From the IMG/VR virus record IMGVR_UViG_2541047812_000002, positions 1 to 5,344 of that record: 5,344 bases of DNA; one strand, given 5' to 3'. The stretch comes from a virus (taxonomy: Duplodnaviria > Heunggongvirae > Uroviricota > Caudoviricetes). Each line of letters starts with the position of its first letter. Position 1 is the stretch's first letter. Shown in pieces: positions 1-5,344 of this stretch. The position numbers and the translations under genes were made by a program. Under the pieces are notes generated by a model. That model had not been told where the DNA came from and did not search any database. It worked only from the letters and a program-made list of their open reading frames with translations.

Positions 1-73
1 TTTAACCAGGGCGGGTATCGCTCGGTTTCGGGTATAACCTTAGGAAATTTTTTCCCACCTGTAAAGCACTTTT

Positions 74-105
74 TATATAAATCTATAATTATATATTTAT
101 AGATT
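74..105. repeat. Iteron cluster A: four tandem 8-bp AT-rich units (TATATAAA TCTATAAT TATATATT TATAGATT), related to the clusters flanking the par genes
   Basis: Read directly from sequence. 8-bp periodicity with units starting TATA/TCTA. Contains TTATATAAATCTATA (74-88), the exact reverse complement of TATAGATTTATATAA found in clusters B and D. Outer arms AAATCTATAA / TTATAGATTT form a 10-bp inverted repeat. Confidence 0.6.
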
Positions 106-156
106 TTCGATGTTCCCGATATCTACACACCATCAAAACAGCTCAAAATGACACTT

Positions 157-534
157 TTACTCTCTTCGCTTTTTCAAATAGTCGACAACATACGCCCTGG
201 CTTTTGCCAGCTTCCGGCGATACTGTCTGAGACTAAGAGAAAGGGCGTGGGCTTTATCAATATGCGGTGCATTTATGTCGAGGCCCCGAATCTCCCACGC
301 CCCGTATTCAATTCGGACAACCAGCGCCGCAGTCTCATCAACTACCGTGAGGGCCGTCACCGCTCCCTCGATACTGGTTTCCAGTGAGTCATTTGGTGCG
401 CCGCCCCCTCCGGTAAACTGGCAGCGCGTAACCATCATCATTTCTAACATCGACGCGAAACCGCTACGGGCGTTGCAGCCATTGCGCACCCACAGCGCCC
501 ATAGCTCAAACAAGCTATCCAGATCGCGTCTCAC
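157..534 (-). CDS. Putative phage antitermination protein Q-like (short QuuD-type family)
   Basis: 125-aa ORF, last gene of the coupled minus-strand operon (3-nt gap to the upstream gene). N-terminal LFELWALWVRNG motif and helix-rich C-terminus (LSLSLRQYRRKLAKARAYVVDYL) resemble my recollection of the Phage_antitermQ family. Position at the distal end of a cro-led operon fits. Assigned from memory, not a search. Confidence 0.4.
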   Translation of the reverse strand: MRRDLDSLFELWALWVRNGCNARSGFASMLEMMMVTRCQFTGGGGAPNDSLETSIEGAVTALTVVDETAALVVRIEYGAWEIRGLDINAPHIDKAHALSLSLRQYRRKLAKARAYVVDYLKKRRE

Positions 535-537
535 TGT

Positions 538-870
538 TCAGATCTCCCGTATCGTGACGGGATAAAGCGCCTCTACCTGCTTTTTCTTCATGATGTAGAC
601 GTCTGTTCGCACACCTTTAGTGTCGACACAATCAATCGTCCCATCGTCATAAAACACCATGAAATCAAGTTTATAAACGACACCACCTGGCAGATGAAAA
701 GGCACCTGCATAAGAAACGTCACAACGCGGCCAGCTTTTCTCAGTAGCTTCAGTTCGCAGTAGTAATCAGCCTCTTTTTTGCTATCAAAAGAGATATCAT
801 CGACAACAGTTTTTTTATTGCCGTATTTGCTTTTCCTGGTCGCTGGTTTGCGAAAGCCGGTATATCTCAT
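538..870 (-). CDS. DUF1064-family phage protein (putative nuclease/resolvase-like)
   Basis: 110-aa translation contains KYGNKKTVVDDISFDSKKEADYYCELKLLRKAG ... YKLDFMVFYDDGTIDCVDTKGVRTDVYIMKKK ... IREI, matching the conserved pattern I recall for DUF1064 proteins (KYGNKKT..DG..FDSKKEA..Y.EL.LL.KAG ... DF.Y ... DVKG..T..Y..KKK). Start overlaps the upstream gene stop by 4 nt (ATGA). Confidence 0.65.
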   Translation of the reverse strand: MRYTGFRKPATRKSKYGNKKTVVDDISFDSKKEADYYCELKLLRKAGRVVTFLMQVPFHLPGGVVYKLDFMVFYDDGTIDCVDTKGVRTDVYIMKKKQVEALYPVTIREI

Positions 871-1271
871 TTGGTATCCCCTGGTACTTCACCAAGACTA
901 AGATCAAACCCAATTTCGTCTTTAACTGACTGCGGCAACAGCTCCCACGTCTGCGCACACAAAAATTCATCGGTGCCATAACGCTCAACAAAGCGAGCAC
1001 AATTACTCAGGGGAGGGTGACGAACGGCAATATGCGGAGGCACGCGCCCACCACCAGGCACAACACCGCGATGATGTGGTGCGCACAACCCAAAGCTATG
1101 GAAGTGGCAATTCTCATCAACGCTGCCGTAATCAGGATCGTGATGTAGCTCCGTCCACAGCTCTGGATTCTCAATTTCACGGCCATCAATAATGCAAGCT
1201 ATGCAACCCACGTGAGTGAGCACCGCTTGTATATAAAGTTTCTCTTTCTTCGTTGGTGTACGTCCGTTCAT
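867..1271 (-). CDS. Cys/His-rich hypothetical protein, possible Zn-binding phage nuclease-like protein
   Basis: 134-aa ORF in the coupled operon. Contains CIAC, HHD, CHFHSFGLC and HH clusters suggestive of metal binding. AAGGGG Shine-Dalgarno about 5 nt upstream of the ATG. Family not confidently recognised. Confidence 0.5.
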   Translation of the reverse strand: MNGRTPTKKEKLYIQAVLTHVGCIACIIDGREIENPELWTELHHDPDYGSVDENCHFHSFGLCAPHHRGVVPGGGRVPPHIAVRHPPLSNCARFVERYGTDEFLCAQTWELLPQSVKDEIGFDLSLGEVPGDTK

Positions 1272-1504
1272 CAGCGCCCCTTACCATTGATAAAGAGGTT
1301 GAACTCGTTGATTAACTGGACATACATGCTTCTGGCCGCGTAGTTCTTTGCCAGCTCTTTACGGGATGAGATCCCGCAAAACTCACGCAGAATCACAGAG
1401 GCCTCAGAACTGTTTGAAACGTTCTTCCCTGTTTTACTGGTCAGAAAGCGCCAGAATTGGGGATTCTGGCAATGCATCGCAGCACCGCGAACATAACTAC
1501 TCAT
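1271..1504 (-). CDS. Hypothetical small protein (77 aa)
   Basis: ORF in the coupled operon: its start overlaps the upstream stop (ATGA) and its stop shares one nucleotide with the downstream start (TGATG). No recognisable motif. Confidence 0.4.
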   Translation of the reverse strand: MSSYVRGAAMHCQNPQFWRFLTSKTGKNVSNSSEASVILREFCGISSRKELAKNYAARSMYVQLINEFNLFINGKGR

Positions 1505-2016
1505 TGATGGCCCCCGTCATTTCTGGTGCTTTTCACCGTGCGGCTTCTTAAAAACCTGCCATCACGAACAACAGACACTTCTCGTTTACCCAACCTCATT
1601 TCACGGCGGTAACATTCAGAAAATGCCTCGTCCGGCATCATATAAATGCGACGCTTCGCCTCCGTATCCAGAAGGGAACGGCTTGGGGTTACATATAAAA
1701 ACGACTCATCAATAGGGACAAAACCACGAGCAAGAATTGCTGGCAGAATGCCAGGAAGAACGCAGAAAACAGCTCCACGATGCAGCAACATCAGGTACTC
1801 CATGACCTCCGTTATCCCCGTGACTACTGTTACGGTGTCACGTCTGTTACGGCTGGCAACCAGTCGCTGCACACGTCCAATTTTCTGATCTACAGATAGA
1901 TGTTTGCTATCGTTATCAATATGATCGATAGCAAATCCTTTAATCGTTTGATCAAGGTAGTGCACCACCTTCGATTGAATCTGGTGATTATCACCAAAGA
2001 AGGCCAGAATCATCAT
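1501..2016 (-). CDS. Hypothetical protein (171 aa), second gene of the early operon
   Basis: Long ORF whose ATG overlaps the stop of the cro-like gene (ATGATGA). GGGAGG and GAGGA Shine-Dalgarno candidates upstream. No family recognised from the sequence alone. Confidence 0.55.
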   Translation of the reverse strand: MMILAFFGDNHQIQSKVVHYLDQTIKGFAIDHIDNDSKHLSVDQKIGRVQRLVASRNRRDTVTVVTGITEVMEYLMLLHRGAVFCVLPGILPAILARGFVPIDESFLYVTPSRSLLDTEAKRRIYMMPDEAFSECYRREMRLGKREVSVVRDGRFLRSRTVKSTRNDGGHQ

Positions 2017-2507
2017 TCCTCAAGCCTCCCAAGTGCTGAACGCCGGGCGTTGCTAATCTCCTTATGAATCAGCTCGATATCGCTGGAATCTTTATTCTTA
2101 AGCTCCAGCACGGTAATCGCATCACGAACCTCTGAAACGGTTACGTGTGAGTGTTTCCAGCGAGCAATGAATCGCGGACCGCGTAGATTGCAACGCTCCG
2201 CAGGCATCCCCAACTCAGAGAAAACCGCTTTCAGCCTTGATAAGCAGTTAACAGGGAGATTCCCTTTGATCTTGTTCTGCCGAACCGATGTGCCATCGCT
2301 ACGCTGGCGCTGACGTTCGGCAAAATCTGCCGCCCATTGCTGGACGTTAATCCGGCCTTCCGAATACGCCACCAGCAGCGTCAGGTTATCCGCACGAGGG
2401 AATCTCTCGAAGCGATACCAGGCACCAATCAGTGATGACGTAAAGCCAAACTTTCTGGCAACACCAATTTGGCCTCCATTTTCGTCAACCCACTCCTGAA
2501 AGGTCAT
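2013..2507 (-). CDS. Cro/CII-like HTH DNA-binding protein with about 100-aa C-terminal extension
   Basis: 164-aa ORF transcribed divergently from the repressor gene. N-terminus (QIGVARKFGFTSSLIGAWYRF) has the pattern of Cro/YdaS-type HTH proteins. GGAG Shine-Dalgarno 8 nt upstream of the ATG. Promoter and operators lie immediately upstream. Confidence 0.55.
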   Translation of the reverse strand: MTFQEWVDENGGQIGVARKFGFTSSLIGAWYRFERFPRADNLTLLVAYSEGRINVQQWAADFAERQRQRSDGTSVRQNKIKGNLPVNCLSRLKAVFSELGMPAERCNLRGPRFIARWKHSHVTVSEVRDAITVLELKNKDSSDIELIHKEISNARRSALGRLEE

Positions 2508-2526
2508 TTAACGAACTCCAGTTAAA

Positions 2527-2541
2527 ACCACGATATGTGGT
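2527..2541. promoter_or_regulatory. Operator-like palindrome O1 (ACCAC-GATAT-GTGGT)
   Basis: Perfect 5-bp inverted arms ACCAC/GTGGT with a 5-bp spacer. Lies just downstream of the -10 of the putative cro-like promoter, on the minus strand. Confidence 0.5.
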
Positions 2542-2570
2542 ATTAAAACCACATATCGTGAGTTTTTCAA
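2542..2570 (-). promoter_or_regulatory. Putative sigma70 promoter of the cro-like/early operon
   Basis: On the minus strand: -35 TTGAAA (2565-2570), 17-bp spacer, -10 TTTAAT (2542-2547). A T10 tract (A10 on the plus strand, 2576-2585) lies just upstream and could act as a UP element. Operator O2 fills the spacer. Confidence 0.45.
2548..2562. promoter_or_regulatory. Operator-like palindrome O2 (ACCAC-ATATC-GTGAG)
   Basis: Same ACCAC-N5-GTG(G) architecture as O1, with one imperfect arm. Its core is the reverse complement of the O1 core. Occupies 15 of the 17 spacer positions between the -35 and -10 of the putative cro-like promoter. Confidence 0.5.
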
Positions 2571-2628
2571 TGGGCAAAAAAAAAATAACCTTCTATTTGT
2601 GGTCCACCTCTCGTCTTACCATGTGAAA

Positions 2629-2643
2629 ACCACTAAATGTGGT
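2629..2643. promoter_or_regulatory. Operator-like palindrome O3 (ACCAC-TAAAT-GTGGT)
   Basis: Third copy of ACCAC-N5-GTGGT. Sits 5 bp upstream of a TATAAA -10-like hexamer (2648-2653, with TG at 2646-2647) about 28 bp ahead of the repressor ATG. Confidence 0.45.
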
Positions 2644-2680
2644 AATGTATAAATAACCCACCATTCACGATTGATGAGAC

Positions 2681-3337
2681 ATGAAAAGCAACGACGAGAA
2701 CATCAAGAAAGAAATAGGTCTGCGCATTCAGACTCTACGGAAACAATCCGGCATGACTGCCGGAGATCTCCAGCAAGTCACTGGAATAGGCTTAAGCACC
2801 TTGCAGAACTATGAGGCCGGATTAAGACAACCATCTATACCTGCCATCAAGAAAATCGCGCACGCCCTGAAAGCATCAGCGCCTTATATCGCGTGCTTAA
2901 CAGATAACCCGTTCCCACCCCAGAATACTAACGCTCCTGTTATTCCTGGGCTTGTAGCTATAAAAAATGACATAGCATCGCACGCCGGAGAAAAGCCAGT
3001 GCTGGCGATAGAACAGGAGATTCTACGAAGCAAGAACATCAACCCATCGTCTCTGTCAGTTCTCCAGAGCAACGATGAGTTAATGTCACCAACAATATCC
3101 CCTGGCTCCCAAGTCCTGATTGATACAGACGATACAGAGATTCATGAGGGGATCTATGCCCTTGAAGACAGAAATGGCCTGGTTGTTTTGAGGCACTGTA
3201 GAGTCATACCGGGTGACAATGCTGTTATGCTGTCAACCGAAAGGGATGCTGAAATGAACACTAAGCATCTGAATAACGAGGAATTTAAGCGTTATAAAGT
3301 TCTGGGCCGCGTAGTTAGTGTTGTCAACTGGTTATGA
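2681..3337 (+). CDS. CI-like transcriptional repressor: N-terminal XRE-type HTH plus C-terminal S24 (LexA/CI)-like domain, apparently catalytically degenerate
   Basis: 218-aa ORF. Residues about 11-70 have the classic XRE HTH pattern (GMTAGDLQQVTGIGLSTLQNYEAGLRQPSIPAIKKIAHAL). The C-terminal 90 aa align to the S24 fold (LMSPTISPGSQVLIDTD ... YKVLGRVVSV), but the GDSM serine position reads DELM and the conserved lysine position is R/H. Confidence 0.7.
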   Translation: MKSNDENIKKEIGLRIQTLRKQSGMTAGDLQQVTGIGLSTLQNYEAGLRQPSIPAIKKIAHALKASAPYIACLTDNPFPPQNTNAPVIPGLVAIKNDIASHAGEKPVLAIEQEILRSKNINPSSLSVLQSNDELMSPTISPGSQVLIDTDDTEIHEGIYALEDRNGLVVLRHCRVIPGDNAVMLSTERDAEMNTKHLNNEEFKRYKVLGRVVSVVNWL

Positions 3338-3379
3338 TACACAGCACGGCGAAAGCCGTGCATTTCTACGCTCAAAAAA

Positions 3380-3394
3380 ACCACATTTTGTGGT
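3380..3394. promoter_or_regulatory. Operator-like palindrome O4 (ACCAC-ATTTT-GTGGT)
   Basis: Fourth copy of the motif, within the longer palindrome AAAACCACATTTTGTGGTTTT, between the repressor stop and the next gene. A TTGACA hexamer follows at 3395-3400, and AGAGG (3419-3423) precedes the ATG at 3430. Confidence 0.45.
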
Positions 3395-3429
3395 TTTGAC
3401 AACATGTGAAAGTATAAAAGAGGCTACGC

Positions 3430-3804
3430 ATGGAATTACATACAGCCAATAAAAACGAAACTCTGATCACTGCTGGAATCGAAATCCAAGCGTTGAACAT
3501 AGCGATTGAGTGTATGTTATGCCAAATCATTGATAATGAGAAAGATATCGACTGGATATCATCTACCCTTCATCTTGCTTACGAGCAAAAAGCCTGCCTC
3601 AAAACAGCCTTACAATACGATGTGCCTTCTGTATCAAAGCTGTGCCAGTCATTGATGGCATATAACAGAGCTATCATTTCTGTATGCCTCATGATTCTCG
3701 ATGAGAATACCCCTCTTAGCGACCGCTCAGAAGCAGCTCTAACCCTCTCACGTAAACAGCGACAGCTAGCAAATCAACTGATATCAACGATAGCTGACCT
3801 CTGA
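3430..3804 (+). CDS. Hypothetical protein (124 aa) downstream of the repressor gene
   Basis: ORF with a good Shine-Dalgarno (AAGAGG, 6-nt spacing) and a stem-loop terminator immediately after its stop. Predicted mostly helical. No family recognised. Confidence 0.5.
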   Translation: MELHTANKNETLITAGIEIQALNIAIECMLCQIIDNEKDIDWISSTLHLAYEQKACLKTALQYDVPSVSKLCQSLMAYNRAIISVCLMILDENTPLSDRSEAALTLSRKQRQLANQLISTIADL

Positions 3805-3808
3805 CTGC

Positions 3809-3828
3809 AAGCGGGCTAACGCCCGCTT
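3809..3828 (+). terminator. Putative intrinsic terminator (stem AAGCGGGC / GCCCGCTT, loop TAAC)
   Basis: Perfect 8-bp GC-rich stem with a 4-nt loop starting 5 nt after the stop at 3804. Followed by AT-rich sequence, though not a clean T-run. Confidence 0.45.
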
Positions 3829-3859
3829 ATATGATTATAGATTTATATAATTATATAAA
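3828..3859. repeat. Iteron cluster B: four tandem 8-bp units (TATATGAT TATAGATT TATATAAT TATATAAA)
   Basis: Read directly from sequence. The 23-mer TATAGATTTATATAATTATATAA (3836-3858) recurs with one mismatch in cluster C. Confidence 0.6.
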
Positions 3860-3881
3860 ACGCTTTTCATCCGCCAAAAAG

Positions 3882-3910
3882 TTGGTTATGCTTACCTCGT
3901 TCTATAAATA
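3882..3910 (+). promoter_or_regulatory. Putative par operon promoter overlapping iteron cluster C
   Basis: -35-like TTGGTT (3882-3887) and a -10-like TATAAA/TAAATA within 3903-3910 at 15-17 bp spacing, between iteron clusters B and C, about 45 bp upstream of the parA-like start. Weak consensus match; inference only. Confidence 0.3.
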
Positions 3911-3932
3911 TAGATTTATAGAATTATATAAC
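3901..3932. repeat. Iteron cluster C: tandem 8-bp units (TCTATAAA TATAGATT TATAGAAT TATATAAC)
   Basis: Read directly from sequence. 3909-3931 (TATAGATTTATAGAATTATATAA) differs from the cluster B 23-mer at one position. Ends 23 bp before the parA-like start. Confidence 0.6.
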
Positions 3933-3954
3933 CAAACACATGGAGTCTCGACAA

Positions 3955-4608
3955 ATGACTATCTCTGTAGGTATTTTCAACGGAAAAGGCGGCGTAACCA
4001 AATCAACAATTGCCCGTGCTTTAGCAGTTGCTTATGCAAAGGCTGGCTGGAATGTATGCCTGATCGATATGGATGTGCTTAACGGAACGGTAACGCGTTG
4101 GGTACAACGCAGAATGGCCAACAATATCGAACCAGCAATCGCGGCGCAGCCGTGCGGCACACCATCACAAGTCCAGAAAATCATCGAATCAGAAGTATAC
4201 GACCTGGTTATCGTCGATGGCGGTGCCTACGCATCTGAATCAGTACCGAAGCTCTCTGAATTTCTGGATATGGTTATTTTGCCAACCAGATTCTCTACCG
4301 ATGACCTGGAAACCACCGTTAACACAGCTCACGGCATCGTTAAAAAGGGTGTACCAATCAAGAAAATTTGCATGGTGTTTTCCGGCGCGGCTGAAAACGA
4401 AGCTGACTATATTGAAGCCCAAGAGTACCTGGCTAATACGCCATACTTTGTTGTCGATAAGTACATTCCCCACAAGCCAGCTCTGAGCAAAGCTCAGGAT
4501 AAGGGCTTAAGCCTTATTGAGTGCTCATACGTTGCGCCACGCAAAAAGGCAGACGATGTTATCCAGGGGATTATCAATCAGCTTGAGGCTCTGACTACTG
4601 CCGCGTAA
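3955..4608 (+). CDS. parA: ParA/ParF-family partition ATPase (small, type Ib; deviant Walker A)
   Basis: N-terminus MTISVGIFNGKGGVTKSTIARALAVAYAKAGWNVCLIDMD carries the deviant Walker A motif KGGxxK[ST] typical of ParA/MinD ATPases. About 217 aa, the size of ParF-type proteins. I prefer the ATG at 3955 (GGAG 9 nt upstream) over the track's ATG at 3940, which has no Shine-Dalgarno. Confidence 0.85.
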   Translation: MTISVGIFNGKGGVTKSTIARALAVAYAKAGWNVCLIDMDVLNGTVTRWVQRRMANNIEPAIAAQPCGTPSQVQKIIESEVYDLVIVDGGAYASESVPKLSEFLDMVILPTRFSTDDLETTVNTAHGIVKKGVPIKKICMVFSGAAENEADYIEAQEYLANTPYFVVDKYIPHKPALSKAQDKGLSLIECSYVAPRKKADDVIQGIINQLEALTTAA

Positions 4609-4640
4609 TATATAATTATAGTTTTATAGATTTATATAAA
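4609..4640. repeat. Iteron cluster D: four tandem 8-bp units (TATATAAT TATAGTTT TATAGATT TATATAAA) filling the parA-parG spacer
   Basis: Read directly from sequence. Begins immediately after the parA-like stop (4606-4608) and ends 11 bp before the parG-like ATG. Shares TATAGATTTATATAA with cluster B. Confidence 0.6.
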
Positions 4641-4651
4641 AGGGGATACAC

Positions 4652-4900
4652 ATGGCCGCACCATCAAAACCACCGAAAAAGAACAGCAAAGGCGTACCGC
4701 CATCAATCGAACAACCGCAGGTTTTCGACCCGACTGAAACGCCGACCAGAACCAAATCAGGTGGGGCACAAATGGCGTTTAACGTCGACCCTGAATTTAA
4801 ACGCGAGTACAAAACGTTCGCCAGCTCAATGGATATGTCATTGAAAGAAGTGCTGACAAAATCTTTTGAGTTACTCAAGGCTCAATACAACCAGAAGTAA
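4652..4900 (+). CDS. ParG-like ribbon-helix-helix centromere-binding protein (82 aa)
   Basis: Immediately downstream of the ParA-like gene, with an AAGGGG Shine-Dalgarno. C-terminal 40 aa (MAFNVDPEFKREYKTFASSMDMSLKEVLTKSFELLKAQY) fits a beta-strand/helix/helix RHH pattern similar to TP228 ParG as I recall it. N-terminal 40 aa is a Pro/Lys-rich, probably disordered tail. Confidence 0.6.
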   Translation: MAAPSKPPKKNSKGVPPSIEQPQVFDPTETPTRTKSGGAQMAFNVDPEFKREYKTFASSMDMSLKEVLTKSFELLKAQYNQK

Positions 4901-4962
4901 GAGAAGGTGACGGCCTCCAGCGCCAACTGTTGGCCGTCGCGACACAACAAGGGGAATTTGTT

Positions 4963-5112
4963 ATGTCCGAGCAACAATATACACGGTTACTGAAAACTCG
5001 TCTAACCGACCTCAAACGGCTGCAAGCTGGTTGCTTATTTGCCCTGCTATCTACCAGGCCAGAATGGGTACGTGAAGCAGTTCTGAAAGGTTTAATGCGC
5101 TCCAGCGTTTAA
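4963..5112 (+). CDS. Hypothetical small protein (49 aa from the ATG at 4963; the track ORF starts at 4930)
   Basis: AAGGGGA Shine-Dalgarno 7 nt upstream of the ATG at 4963. Stop codon TAA (5110-5112) lies 9 bp before the IS terminal repeat. No motif recognised. Confidence 0.3.
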   Translation: MSEQQYTRLLKTRLTDLKRLQAGCLFALLSTRPEWVREAVLKGLMRSSV

Positions 5113-5120
5113 ATTCAACC

Positions 5121-5344
5121 GGCTTTGTTGAATAAATCGAACTTTTGCTGAGTTGAAGGATCAGATCACGCATCCTCCCGACAACACAGACCATTCCGTG
5201 GCAAAGCAAAAGTTCAGAATCACCAACTGGTCCACCTACAACAAAGCTCTCATCAACCGTGGCTCCCTCACTTTCTGGCTGGATGATGAAGCGATTCAGG
5301 CCTGGTATGAGTCGGCAACGCCTTCATCACGAGGAAGGCCCCAG
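5121..5344 (+). mobile_element. IS903-group insertion sequence (IS5 family), left end; partial, continues past the window
   Basis: 5121-5138 GGCTTTGTTGAATAAATC matches the 18-bp terminal inverted repeat of IS903 as I recall it. The following 200 bp match the known IS903 left end with a few substitutions. Confidence 0.85.
5198..5344 (+). CDS. tnp: IS903-family (IS5 family) transposase, N-terminal 49 codons (partial; GTG start; runs off the window)
   Basis: Translation from GTG 5198: VAKQKFRITNWSTYNKALINRGSLTFWLDDEAIQAWYESATPSSRGRPQ, near-identical to the IS903 transposase N-terminus as I remember it (MAKQKFKITNWSTYNKALINRGSLTFWLDDEAIQAWYESATPSSRGRPQ). Absent from the ORF track because it lacks an ATG and is truncated by the window edge. 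Confidence 0.8.
   Translation, partial: MAKQKFRITNWSTYNKALINRGSLTFWLDDEAIQAWYESATPSSRGRPQ

Follow-up and report, generated by a model that had tools for sequence, protein, structure and literature searches.

Repressor, partition genes and dispersed four-unit repeat arrays in the probable backbone of a p-p47-type phage-plasmid

The locus and its source element

The DNA analysed here is a stretch of 5,344 nt (the window) that makes up positions 1–5,344 of the caudovirus record IMGVR_UViG_2541047812_000002. It contains eleven open reading frames (ORFs) in two divergent blocks, followed by the end of an insertion sequence. The leftward block is a six-gene early operon whose last gene encodes a Q-like protein. 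The rightward block opens with the gene for a CI-like repressor and runs on to a partition (par) module consisting of parA and the gene for an 82-aa protein, with arrays of short direct repeats around them and at the far left of the window. An earlier note, made from the letters alone, had read this arrangement as a phage switch beside a plasmid partition cassette, belonging either to an episomal prophage maintained by plasmid functions or to a defective prophage remnant captured on a plasmid.

Positions 1–5120 of the window are 100% identical to the Escherichia coli plasmid pP136-7 (NZ_CP080230.1; 48,077 bp, circular), and in 57 PLSDB records the coverage of the window is 80% or more. The same positions are 98.8% identical in vB_YpM_39, vB_YpM_41 and vB_YpM_44, three deposited myophages that were isolated on Yersinia pestis. 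An IncFII-like repA lies at 39788–40768 of pP136-7, ∼ 6.5 kb to the right of par, and the phage record is likewise a replicon with its own repA. The annotation of pP136-7 includes genes for terminase, portal, protease, capsid, sheath/tube, tape measure, baseplate and tail fibre; two holins and an endolysin are encoded downstream of the Q-like gene, and all late genes are on the strand that continues from this gene. The plasmid also encodes a RelE/HigB toxin pair and a DNA invertase. Separate from the ParA/82-aa pair, three proteins with ParB/Srx N-terminal domains are encoded at 15748–19628 of pP136-7, just upstream of the terminase genes.

The p-p47 family comprises circular phage-plasmids of 47–54 kb, found mostly in E. 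coli (bioRxiv 10.64898/2026.08.19.745698, August 2026). According to this preprint, CopA/CopT-RepA control holds family members at 1.2–2.6 copies, neither mitomycin C nor ciprofloxacin induces them, and they are unrelated to the ten recognised phage-plasmid types; one member, p-p49, was transferred as a plasmid by phage preparations in a manner that depended on a tail gene and was independent of DNA (bioRxiv 10.64898/2026.08.19.745698). CP032086.1 (94,204 bp) is named there as a family outlier (bioRxiv 10.64898/2026.08.19.745698). It contains the 82-aa gene and the 125-aa Q-like gene of the window at 98–99%, and because of this we assign the window to the p-p47 family. The window very probably represents the immunity, early-gene and partition backbone of such an element, a temperate myovirus of ∼ 48 kb whose genome persists in E. 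coli as a circular plasmid of low copy number. The element as such is already known, as a described phage-plasmid family with dozens of database records; over positions 1–5120 these and the three phages are the same element, at 98.8–100% identity. A word search of the preprint returned no mention of the repressor, the operators, the Q-like gene, the partition genes or the repeats (bioRxiv 10.64898/2026.08.19.745698). The E. coli quality-control strain ATCC 25922 carries a family member (NZ_CP009073.1, 48,488 bp). Membership of the pSLy3 group was considered and rejected: pSLy3 belongs to the SSU5 supergroup of ∼ 100 kb elements, and the preprint links p-p47 to none of the ten types.

Homology to pP136-7 ends at 5120, where the insertion sequence begins.

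5121–5344 (no strand assigned): end of an IS903-type insertion sequence, 92–95% identical to the annotated IS903 of P7 and HK022; outside the backbone

The insertion point is 8 bp past the stop codon of a 49-aa ORF, in a non-coding stretch. The junction was found in none of the PLSDB plasmids and complete E. coli genomes searched, and the database copies of the element do not have the insertion; the source of the window is therefore a variant outside those collections. A backbone broken at 5121, with a junction that has no counterpart in the genomes searched, would suit a defective prophage remnant sitting on a plasmid. Set against this, the 5120 bp match intact 48-kb replicons at 100% identity, every ORF is open, the insertion falls in a non-coding stretch after the par genes and members of the family are infectious, so that we think it very unlikely that this copy is a remnant in place of a functional phage-plasmid. 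For the family as a whole the remnant proposal of the earlier note fails, given intact replicons and isolated phages. Its alternative, an episomal prophage maintained by plasmid functions, is the one that agrees with the data: RepA, virion and lysis genes lie together on a 48-kb circle, near-identical phages have been isolated, and the preprint reports transfer. The structural and lysis genes downstream of the Q-like gene and the plasmid replicon that the note had proposed to look for are present on pP136-7, whose topology is circular. Neither ground on which the note would have given up its reading applies.

Partition genes and four-unit arrays

The partition genes and the arrays of the window are as follows.

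3828–3859 (+): array B, four units, upstream of the candidate par promoter
3864–3869 and 3887–3892 (+): candidate par promoter (P_par), −35 TTTTCA and −10 TATGCT, respectively, with a 17-nt spacer; conserved geometry
3901–3932 (+): array C, four units, between candidate P_par and the parA ribosome-binding site
3955–4608 (+, RefSeq start; ORF open from 3940): gene for ParA, 217 aa, Walker-type, lacking an N-terminal DNA-binding domain, type Ib; CbiA E 1.7e-12, PHROG 164 E 2e-39
4609–4640 (+): array D, four units, between parA and the 82-aa gene
4652–4900 (+): gene for the 'ParG-like' 82-aa protein, a candidate centromere-binding protein by AlphaFold2 (AF2) topology and position beside ParA
72–103 (−): array A, four units (TCTATAAA TATATAAT TATAGATT TATATAAA), directly upstream of a candidate −35 and 50 bp past the Q-like gene

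The Walker A motif of ParA (KGG..K) occupies residues 7–14 of the RefSeq protein, and the protein scores 78.5 bits against the NCBIfam model ParA_partition, under its cutoff of 180. The AF2 model of the 82-aa protein (pLDDT 65) is disordered over residues 1–40, extended over 41–46 and helical over 47–59 and 62–79. Homologues adjoin ParA in plasmids of Serratia, Edwardsiella and Pseudomonas and in Y. pestis pTP33. Of the type Ib ParA/ParG-like module named in the earlier note, the ParA half stands on its CbiA/ParA and PHROG 164 matches; the ParG-like half is a name that we infer from position and modelled topology.

The so-called par iterons prove to be arrays, each of four 8-bp units in which a TATA tetramer is nearly invariant (TATAGATT, TATATAAT, TATATAAA). 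Among periods of 6 to 12 bp only 8 bp gives the periodicity. A matrix built from the par arrays only scores array A at 39–41 bits, and no array locus appears in 30 composition-preserving shuffles. The repeats are therefore real, as the note had claimed, and they are not exclusive to par: in addition to the array at 72–103, which falls just beyond the coordinates given in the note, others occur elsewhere on the replicon. The matrix from arrays B–D finds four further four-unit loci on pP136-7 (21681, 22825, 27065 and 28282) and a three-unit site at 37171, and five further loci in the phage genome. All of these fall between genes and point the same way as the gene that follows, and the shuffles yield none.

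Four other elements have the same order of small protein, ParA, one to three ORFs, repressor and a divergent early operon that includes a Q-like gene.

Serratia marcescens p2: 46.8 kb; array box TAAA
Edwardsiella ictaluri pEI-2083-2: 36.7 kb; array box TAAC
Pseudomonas aeruginosa pPAC1.3b: 42.8 kb; array box TCGC, not AT-rich
Vibrio cyclitrophicus p-ED287: 36.7 kb; par repeats with an 11-bp period, no 8-bp arrays

Their virion modules differ, being myovirus-like or, in Vibrio, like those of HK97-type siphoviruses. The shared repressor/par/Q-like block may mark a broad phage-plasmid group. These four plasmids are non-mobilizable and 36–48 kb in size; by tblastn, Aeromonas, Halomonas and Delftia also have plasmids with the Q-like gene. 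The parA gene of pEI-2083-2 spans the start of the circular record (36652–36669 joined to 1–∼ 640), so the gene table of PLSDB lacks it; reading the sequence between two arrays brought it to light.

In the Serratia, Edwardsiella and Pseudomonas elements arrays of 8-bp period bracket the par promoter in the order array-promoter-array. With its own par matrix each genome has additional dispersed arrays (five in Serratia, three to four in Edwardsiella, four in Pseudomonas; none in shuffles), and when the matrices are exchanged among the genomes, each finds the most loci in its own (diagonal 7, 8, 4, 4). Despite their different boxes, Edwardsiella and Pseudomonas have two extra arrays at the same junctions, one upstream of the integrase gene and one between the tape-measure gene and the next tail gene. 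These comparisons bear on the simplest explanation of the arrays, that they have no binding protein of their own and consist of low-complexity DNA or of the AT-rich sequence of promoters or UP elements. The E. coli units do resemble −10 hexamers (TATAAT), the arrays are placed as UP elements would be, and a promoter scan picks TATAAT inside them. Yet the period is strictly 8 bp, shuffled sequence of the same composition produces no arrays, and the Pseudomonas TCGC boxes, neither AT-rich nor −10-like, keep both the layout and the dispersed positions. Because the Pseudomonas boxes are not AT-rich we regard the plain form of this explanation as ruled out, and we give the idea as a whole hardly any credence.

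Two products of the block come into question as a dedicated binding protein. Phage 21 Q binds two 6-bp direct repeats with centres 8 bp apart, located between −35 and −10, and the arrays might be comparable loading sites for the Q-like protein, similar to the direct repeats of a Q-binding element (QBE), with par and the other operons forming a Q-dependent regulon. The phage 21 spacing equals the array period, array A comes straight after the Q-like gene, all four elements with 8-bp arrays carry both the Q-like and the ParG-like gene, and the changes of box track Q-like divergence too. On the other hand, each of these four elements has arrays on both sides of parA and ahead of the small gene, the classic type Ib layout, and the arrays are found either before the candidate −35 or past the −10, whereas the QBE of phage 21 is between the two. 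The Vibrio element retains the Q-like gene, its small protein is unrelated (hhalign E 0.67), and it has no 8-bp arrays. Conversely, pTP33 lacks a Q-like gene, yet two units of the Pseudomonas type (TCGCTTTTTCGCTAAA) are found immediately upstream of its parA, and its ParG-like protein has a D(L/F)NFKV strand in common with the Pseudomonas protein. For these reasons, namely the position of the arrays around parA and before the small gene, the Vibrio element and pTP33, the comparison suggests the 82-aa ParG-like protein as the array binder in preference to the Q-like protein, and we consider Q loading improbable.

The 82-aa protein and its arrays recall the ParF-ParG-parH system of TP228, in which a gene for a small ParA ATPase is followed by one for a protein of ∼ 80 aa whose N-terminal tail is flexible and whose C-terminal part has a strand-helix-helix topology. 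Its parH, upstream of the operon, is built of 4-bp boxes and 4-bp spacers (8-bp period) and acts as operator and centromere. The topology of the 82-aa protein, modelled at modest confidence, would fit this system, and the array period measured here agrees with it. Unlike TP228, the boxes are TATA, arrays also occur between the two genes and at distant operon starts, and there is no detectable ParG match in sequence or fold.

The Q-like protein and the repeated promoter module

The last gene of the early operon and the segment that follows it can be summarized as two features.

157–534 (−): gene for the Q-like protein, 125 aa, with a putative sigma-region-4-like core, PHROG 5285; probably a remote relative of phage 21 Q
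1–71 (−): candidate promoter and leader module, copy A, −35 TTTACA (65–60), 17-nt spacer, −10 TAAGGT (42–37); reads leftwards into a gene for a DUF3560 protein

The Q-like protein has no Pfam match, and PF06530 does not match it even at E 10; the NCBIfam model PA0613_fam, which represents a pyocin-cluster gene of Pseudomonas, aligns along the full length but scores under the threshold. With a profile made from 102 relatives, phage 21 Q is found in the PDB (E 1.3e-4), the match being limited to 38 N-terminal positions, which correspond to the N-terminal helix. Weak matches to PF06530 occur in six of the 102 relatives (best E 3.6e-4), and about as many match models of sigma-70 region 4 or extracytoplasmic function (ECF) sigma factors. 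In a Foldseek search 21Q takes the top seven places and gives the longest structural alignment (99 of 125 residues). Lambda Q shows no similarity to the profile. We therefore regard the 125-aa protein, with moderate confidence, as a remote relative of phage 21 Q. The claim of a leftward operon ending in a Q-like gene accordingly holds for the operon, and for the Q-like gene in this remote sense.

It is also conceivable, though in our view rather doubtful, that the 125-aa protein is no antiterminator and acts as a small sigma-region-4-like regulator of the promoter module, be it an activator, a repressor or an appropriator of RNA polymerase. The sigma-type core and the matches to sigma models are of the kind that such a protein would give, and neither a pause element nor a QBE could be defined at the repeated promoter module. 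However, 21Q itself has a sigma-region-4-like fold, the 21Q profile match spans the N-terminal helix, which sigma region 4 lacks, and the first seven Foldseek places and the longest alignment belong to 21Q. The gene also occupies the place of Q, with nin-like recombination genes ahead of it and the lysis and virion genes behind it. It ends 50 bp from array A and the repeated promoter module, and a strong hairpin follows the first downstream gene.

The spacer of the copy A promoter contains a GGAAA/TTTCC inverted repeat, and the leader is 85 nt long. On pP136-7 the module is present in three copies that are 100% identical over ∼ 95 nt, at 21590–21700, 28192–28290 (equivalent to window 1–71) and 37088–37190, ending in AAACCGGAGA..ATG. 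They precede the DUF3560 gene, a gene starting at 21595 and a gene starting at 37093; each copy follows an array, and both the flanks and the coding sequences differ. P_par aligns with the module as a diverged copy. The Serratia equivalent is diverged as well (TTGATG-17-TAATAT, a better sigma-70 match) and has another inverted repeat in the spacer. We infer the module promoter and P_par from this conserved geometry, the Serratia copy included. The matches that a consensus scan reports inside the arrays are the TATAAT-like units themselves. A reading of the repeated leader as a riboregulator was dropped, its fold energy being unremarkable (z −0.62), and an Rfam search of the window with E up to 1 returned no match.

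Repressor, early operon and a proposed mechanism

The switch region contains the following features.

2681–3337 (+): gene for the CI-like repressor, 218 aa, XRE helix-turn-helix and degenerate S24-like domain; HTH_3 E 4.5e-11, HTH_31 E 2.8e-9, PHROG 4 E 1.8e-27
2527–2541 (no strand): operator O1, exact ACCAC-N5-GTGGT, adjoining the early-operon start
2548–2562 (no strand): operator O2, two mismatches, an imperfect copy abutting O1 by the early-operon start
2629–2643 (no strand): operator O3, exact palindrome, upstream of the repressor gene
3380–3394 (no strand): operator O4, exact palindrome, after a terminator-like hairpin (3344–3361) and upstream of a 124-aa ORF
2013–2507 (−): 'cro-like' first gene of the early operon, 164 aa, PHROG 7452, opposite the repressor; possible N-terminal helix-turn-helix of YdaS/Cro type

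The CI-like repressor of the earlier note is present, with an HTH_3 domain, a PHROG 4 match and a weak Peptidase_S24 match (20 bits against a Pfam cutoff of 23.3). Pairwise BLAST against lambda CI gave no match. When the repressor is aligned with lambda CI and LexA, leucine replaces both the catalytic serine (DELM versus GNSM/GMSM) and the catalytic lysine (VVLRH versus TFKKL/TVKRL), and no Ala-Gly site is seen; at 16–18% identity this alignment carries some risk of register error, and it is anchored by the SM.P...G..VLID motif. The Serratia homologue has lost the S24 serine, lysine and Ala-Gly in the same way; in the same alignment the Edwardsiella homologue keeps the serine (GDSM) and not the lysine. 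Because these residues are missing, RecA-stimulated autocleavage of the repressor appears unlikely, which fits the failed SOS induction reported in the preprint (bioRxiv 10.64898/2026.08.19.745698). A repressor of this kind would account for the lack of SOS induction and points to an antirepressor route.

Exact ACCAC-N5-GTGGT occurs three times in the window (0.01 expected), and an equivalent of O4 is present in Serratia p2. A pattern with a 6-nt spacer was rejected, as it occurs at chance level; the 5-nt spacer is correct. A consensus promoter scan of the switch region returned nothing convincing. Outside the window a fourth exact operator (AAAACCACGTAACGTGGTT) is found at 40805–40819 of pP136-7, 37 nt upstream of the repA start codon, and also at 24005–24019 of a second record analysed; its position suggests a possible link between immunity and copy number. 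A copy with one mismatch lies at 33927 of pP136-7, between par and a gene for an ORF6N (antirepressor-like) protein; genes of ORF6N/Rha type lie to the right of par. In Serratia just a half-site-like match to the operator is seen upstream of rep. The repressor may thus also touch replication and the antirepressor operon. In one copy-up mutant described in the preprint (strain DA81419), the sole change on the element is in 'a potential transcriptional regulator' (bioRxiv 10.64898/2026.08.19.745698).

The early operon diverges from the repressor gene and comprises six genes, from 2507 down to 157 (−). We call its first gene 'cro-like' on the strength of its position and of a weak hhalign match to Rac YdaS that is in the expected register (E 0.005, probability 7%); a cro-like function is accordingly a suggestion, and this part of the divergent cro-like operon described in the earlier note is to be read as such. 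The gene is conserved in Serratia p2 (42%). Pfam and NCBIfam returned no match for the protein, nor did single-sequence and profile searches of the PDB, and the searches for homologues reached close relatives only, with tblastn returning the same phages. The absence of replication-initiation (O/P) genes between the cro-like and Q-like genes was confirmed: none of the six proteins matches a replication family in Pfam, PHROGs or NCBIfam. The note had further placed the switch within 150 bp of the partition module. That distance does not apply to the repressor gene, which is separated from parA by 618 bp; only the 124-aa ORF between them ends 150 bp before parA.

Taken together, the features of the locus are compatible with the following scheme. 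The repressor, apparently unable to cleave itself, would bind ACCAC-N5-GTGGT and shut off the leftward early operon, and derepression would probably proceed via an antirepressor rather than RecA-stimulated autocleavage. The Q21-like protein could then act on RNA polymerase at the promoter/leader module behind its gene, of which two other operon starts have identical copies, after which transcription would pass terminators into the lysis and virion genes. In the plasmid state the type Ib pair, the 217-aa ParA and the 82-aa ParG-like protein, is predicted to segregate the replicon. Here the ParG-like protein would recognize the four-box arrays with their 8-bp period, and because these bracket the par promoter, binding could provide autoregulation and a centromere at once. 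Since arrays are also found at other operon starts, the partition protein probably also serves as a binder of dispersed centromeres or as a regulator of those operons. We go one step further only tentatively, with a proposal that may well turn out to be wrong: that the 82-aa protein is a genome-wide regulator as well as a centromere binder and gates or assists lytic expression, and that this coupling, together with the repressor/ParA/ParG-like/Q-like super-module and its co-evolving boxes, is conserved across Escherichia, Serratia, Edwardsiella and Pseudomonas in combination with different virion modules.

Several points weigh against this scheme. For the 82-aa protein no significant similarity to ParG or to ribbon-helix-helix families emerged from Pfam, from single-sequence or profile searches of the PDB, or from a Foldseek search with its model. 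The proposed promoter hexamers are under the threshold of the consensus scan. As the repeats bound by phage 21 Q share the 8-bp spacing, the period alone leaves the Q-like protein as a possible binder, and the evidence that separates the two candidates comes from two genomes only, those of the Vibrio element and pTP33. Finally, the source replicon is visible only within the window and IS903 occurs in no matching record, so this copy could be damaged elsewhere.

Dispersed centromere-type sites are known for N15, RK2, pSM19035 and pMF1. N15 is the closest parallel in that it is a phage-plasmid with scattered centromere-type sites, some of them near lytic gene control; it has a CI-like repressor and a Q-type antiterminator, and a paper of 2008 reportedly states in its title that the Sop system facilitates late gene expression. 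N15 is linear, with a telomerase and its own RepA primase-helicase, and its partition system is of type Ia, with a large SopA, the ParB-family protein SopB and single inverted repeats. The system described here, by contrast, belongs to type Ib: its ParA is small, its second protein has 82 aa, and its sites are direct tetramer boxes in arrays. If the proposed coupling is true, type Ib partition would here have an equivalent of what Sop does for the late genes of N15, and the shared backbone would define an unrecognised broad group of phage-plasmids. Omega of pSM19035 and KorB of RK2, partition proteins that act as global regulators as well, likewise have repeat sites before several operons around the replicon, the corresponding regulation being presumed for the element here. 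Unlike this phage, the Omega and KorB plasmids are conjugative or of broad host range; the Omega sites are 7-bp heptads, and KorB is a CTPase of the ParB family.

With lambda and phage 21 the window shares divergent repressor and early units, multiple palindromic operators, and nin-like genes (Ref, DUF1064) followed by a Q21-like gene. It differs from the lambdoid phages in having no O/P, a repressor devoid of autocleavage residues, a 164-aa first gene that is not recognisably Cro, a Q-like protein with no similarity to lambda Q, and a promoter/leader module in three copies in place of a single PR'. We did not find the following details described: the apparently non-cleavable repressor, a putative 21Q-like late regulator beside a triplicated promoter module, and partition-type arrays that are dispersed at operon starts and co-evolve with the small partition protein in several genera. 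Phage-plasmids spread antibiotic-resistance genes among clinical E. coli, and the p-p47 family was tied to beta-lactam heteroresistance only in 2026. The putative sites of a partition protein before late-side operons make it possible to study how segregation and the lytic programme are coordinated, and the repressor/par/Q-like module (Pseudomonas, Vibrio, Edwardsiella, Serratia) could serve as a typing marker for phage-plasmids that present schemes miss.

The remaining genes of the window are listed below.

1501–2016 (−): 171-aa early protein, PHROG 7047; no match in Pfam, NCBIfam or PADLOC
1271–1504 (−): 77-aa early protein, PHROG 5358; no match in Pfam, NCBIfam or PADLOC
867–1271 (−): Ref-family RecA-dependent nuclease; PF16786 E 1.6e-11, RefSeq name
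538–870 (−): DUF1064 protein, PHROG 190, annotated as a Holliday junction resolvase
3430–3804 (+): 124-aa ORF, PHROG 7632, located between the repressor gene and par, with a GC-rich hairpin behind it (3809–3828)
4963–5112 (+): conserved 49-aa ORF, unannotated in RefSeq; 51% identity to the ORF in the same place in Serratia p2

The position between the repressor gene and par is occupied by one to three ORFs in all related elements examined. PADLOC found no match for the seven small proteins submitted to it and gave no support for a defence gene beside the repressor gene. The 49-aa ORF may be a third gene of the par operon. Two translation-initiation regions of the window are near-duplicates, TATAAAAGAGGCTACGCATGG before the 124-aa ORF (3413–3433) and TATAAAAGGGGATACACATGG before the 82-aa gene (4635–4655). 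The start region of parA (GGAGTCTCGACAAATG, 3940–3957) resembles that of the gene after the pP136-7 array at 27065 and of its Serratia counterpart (AAGGACGyCTCGACAATG).

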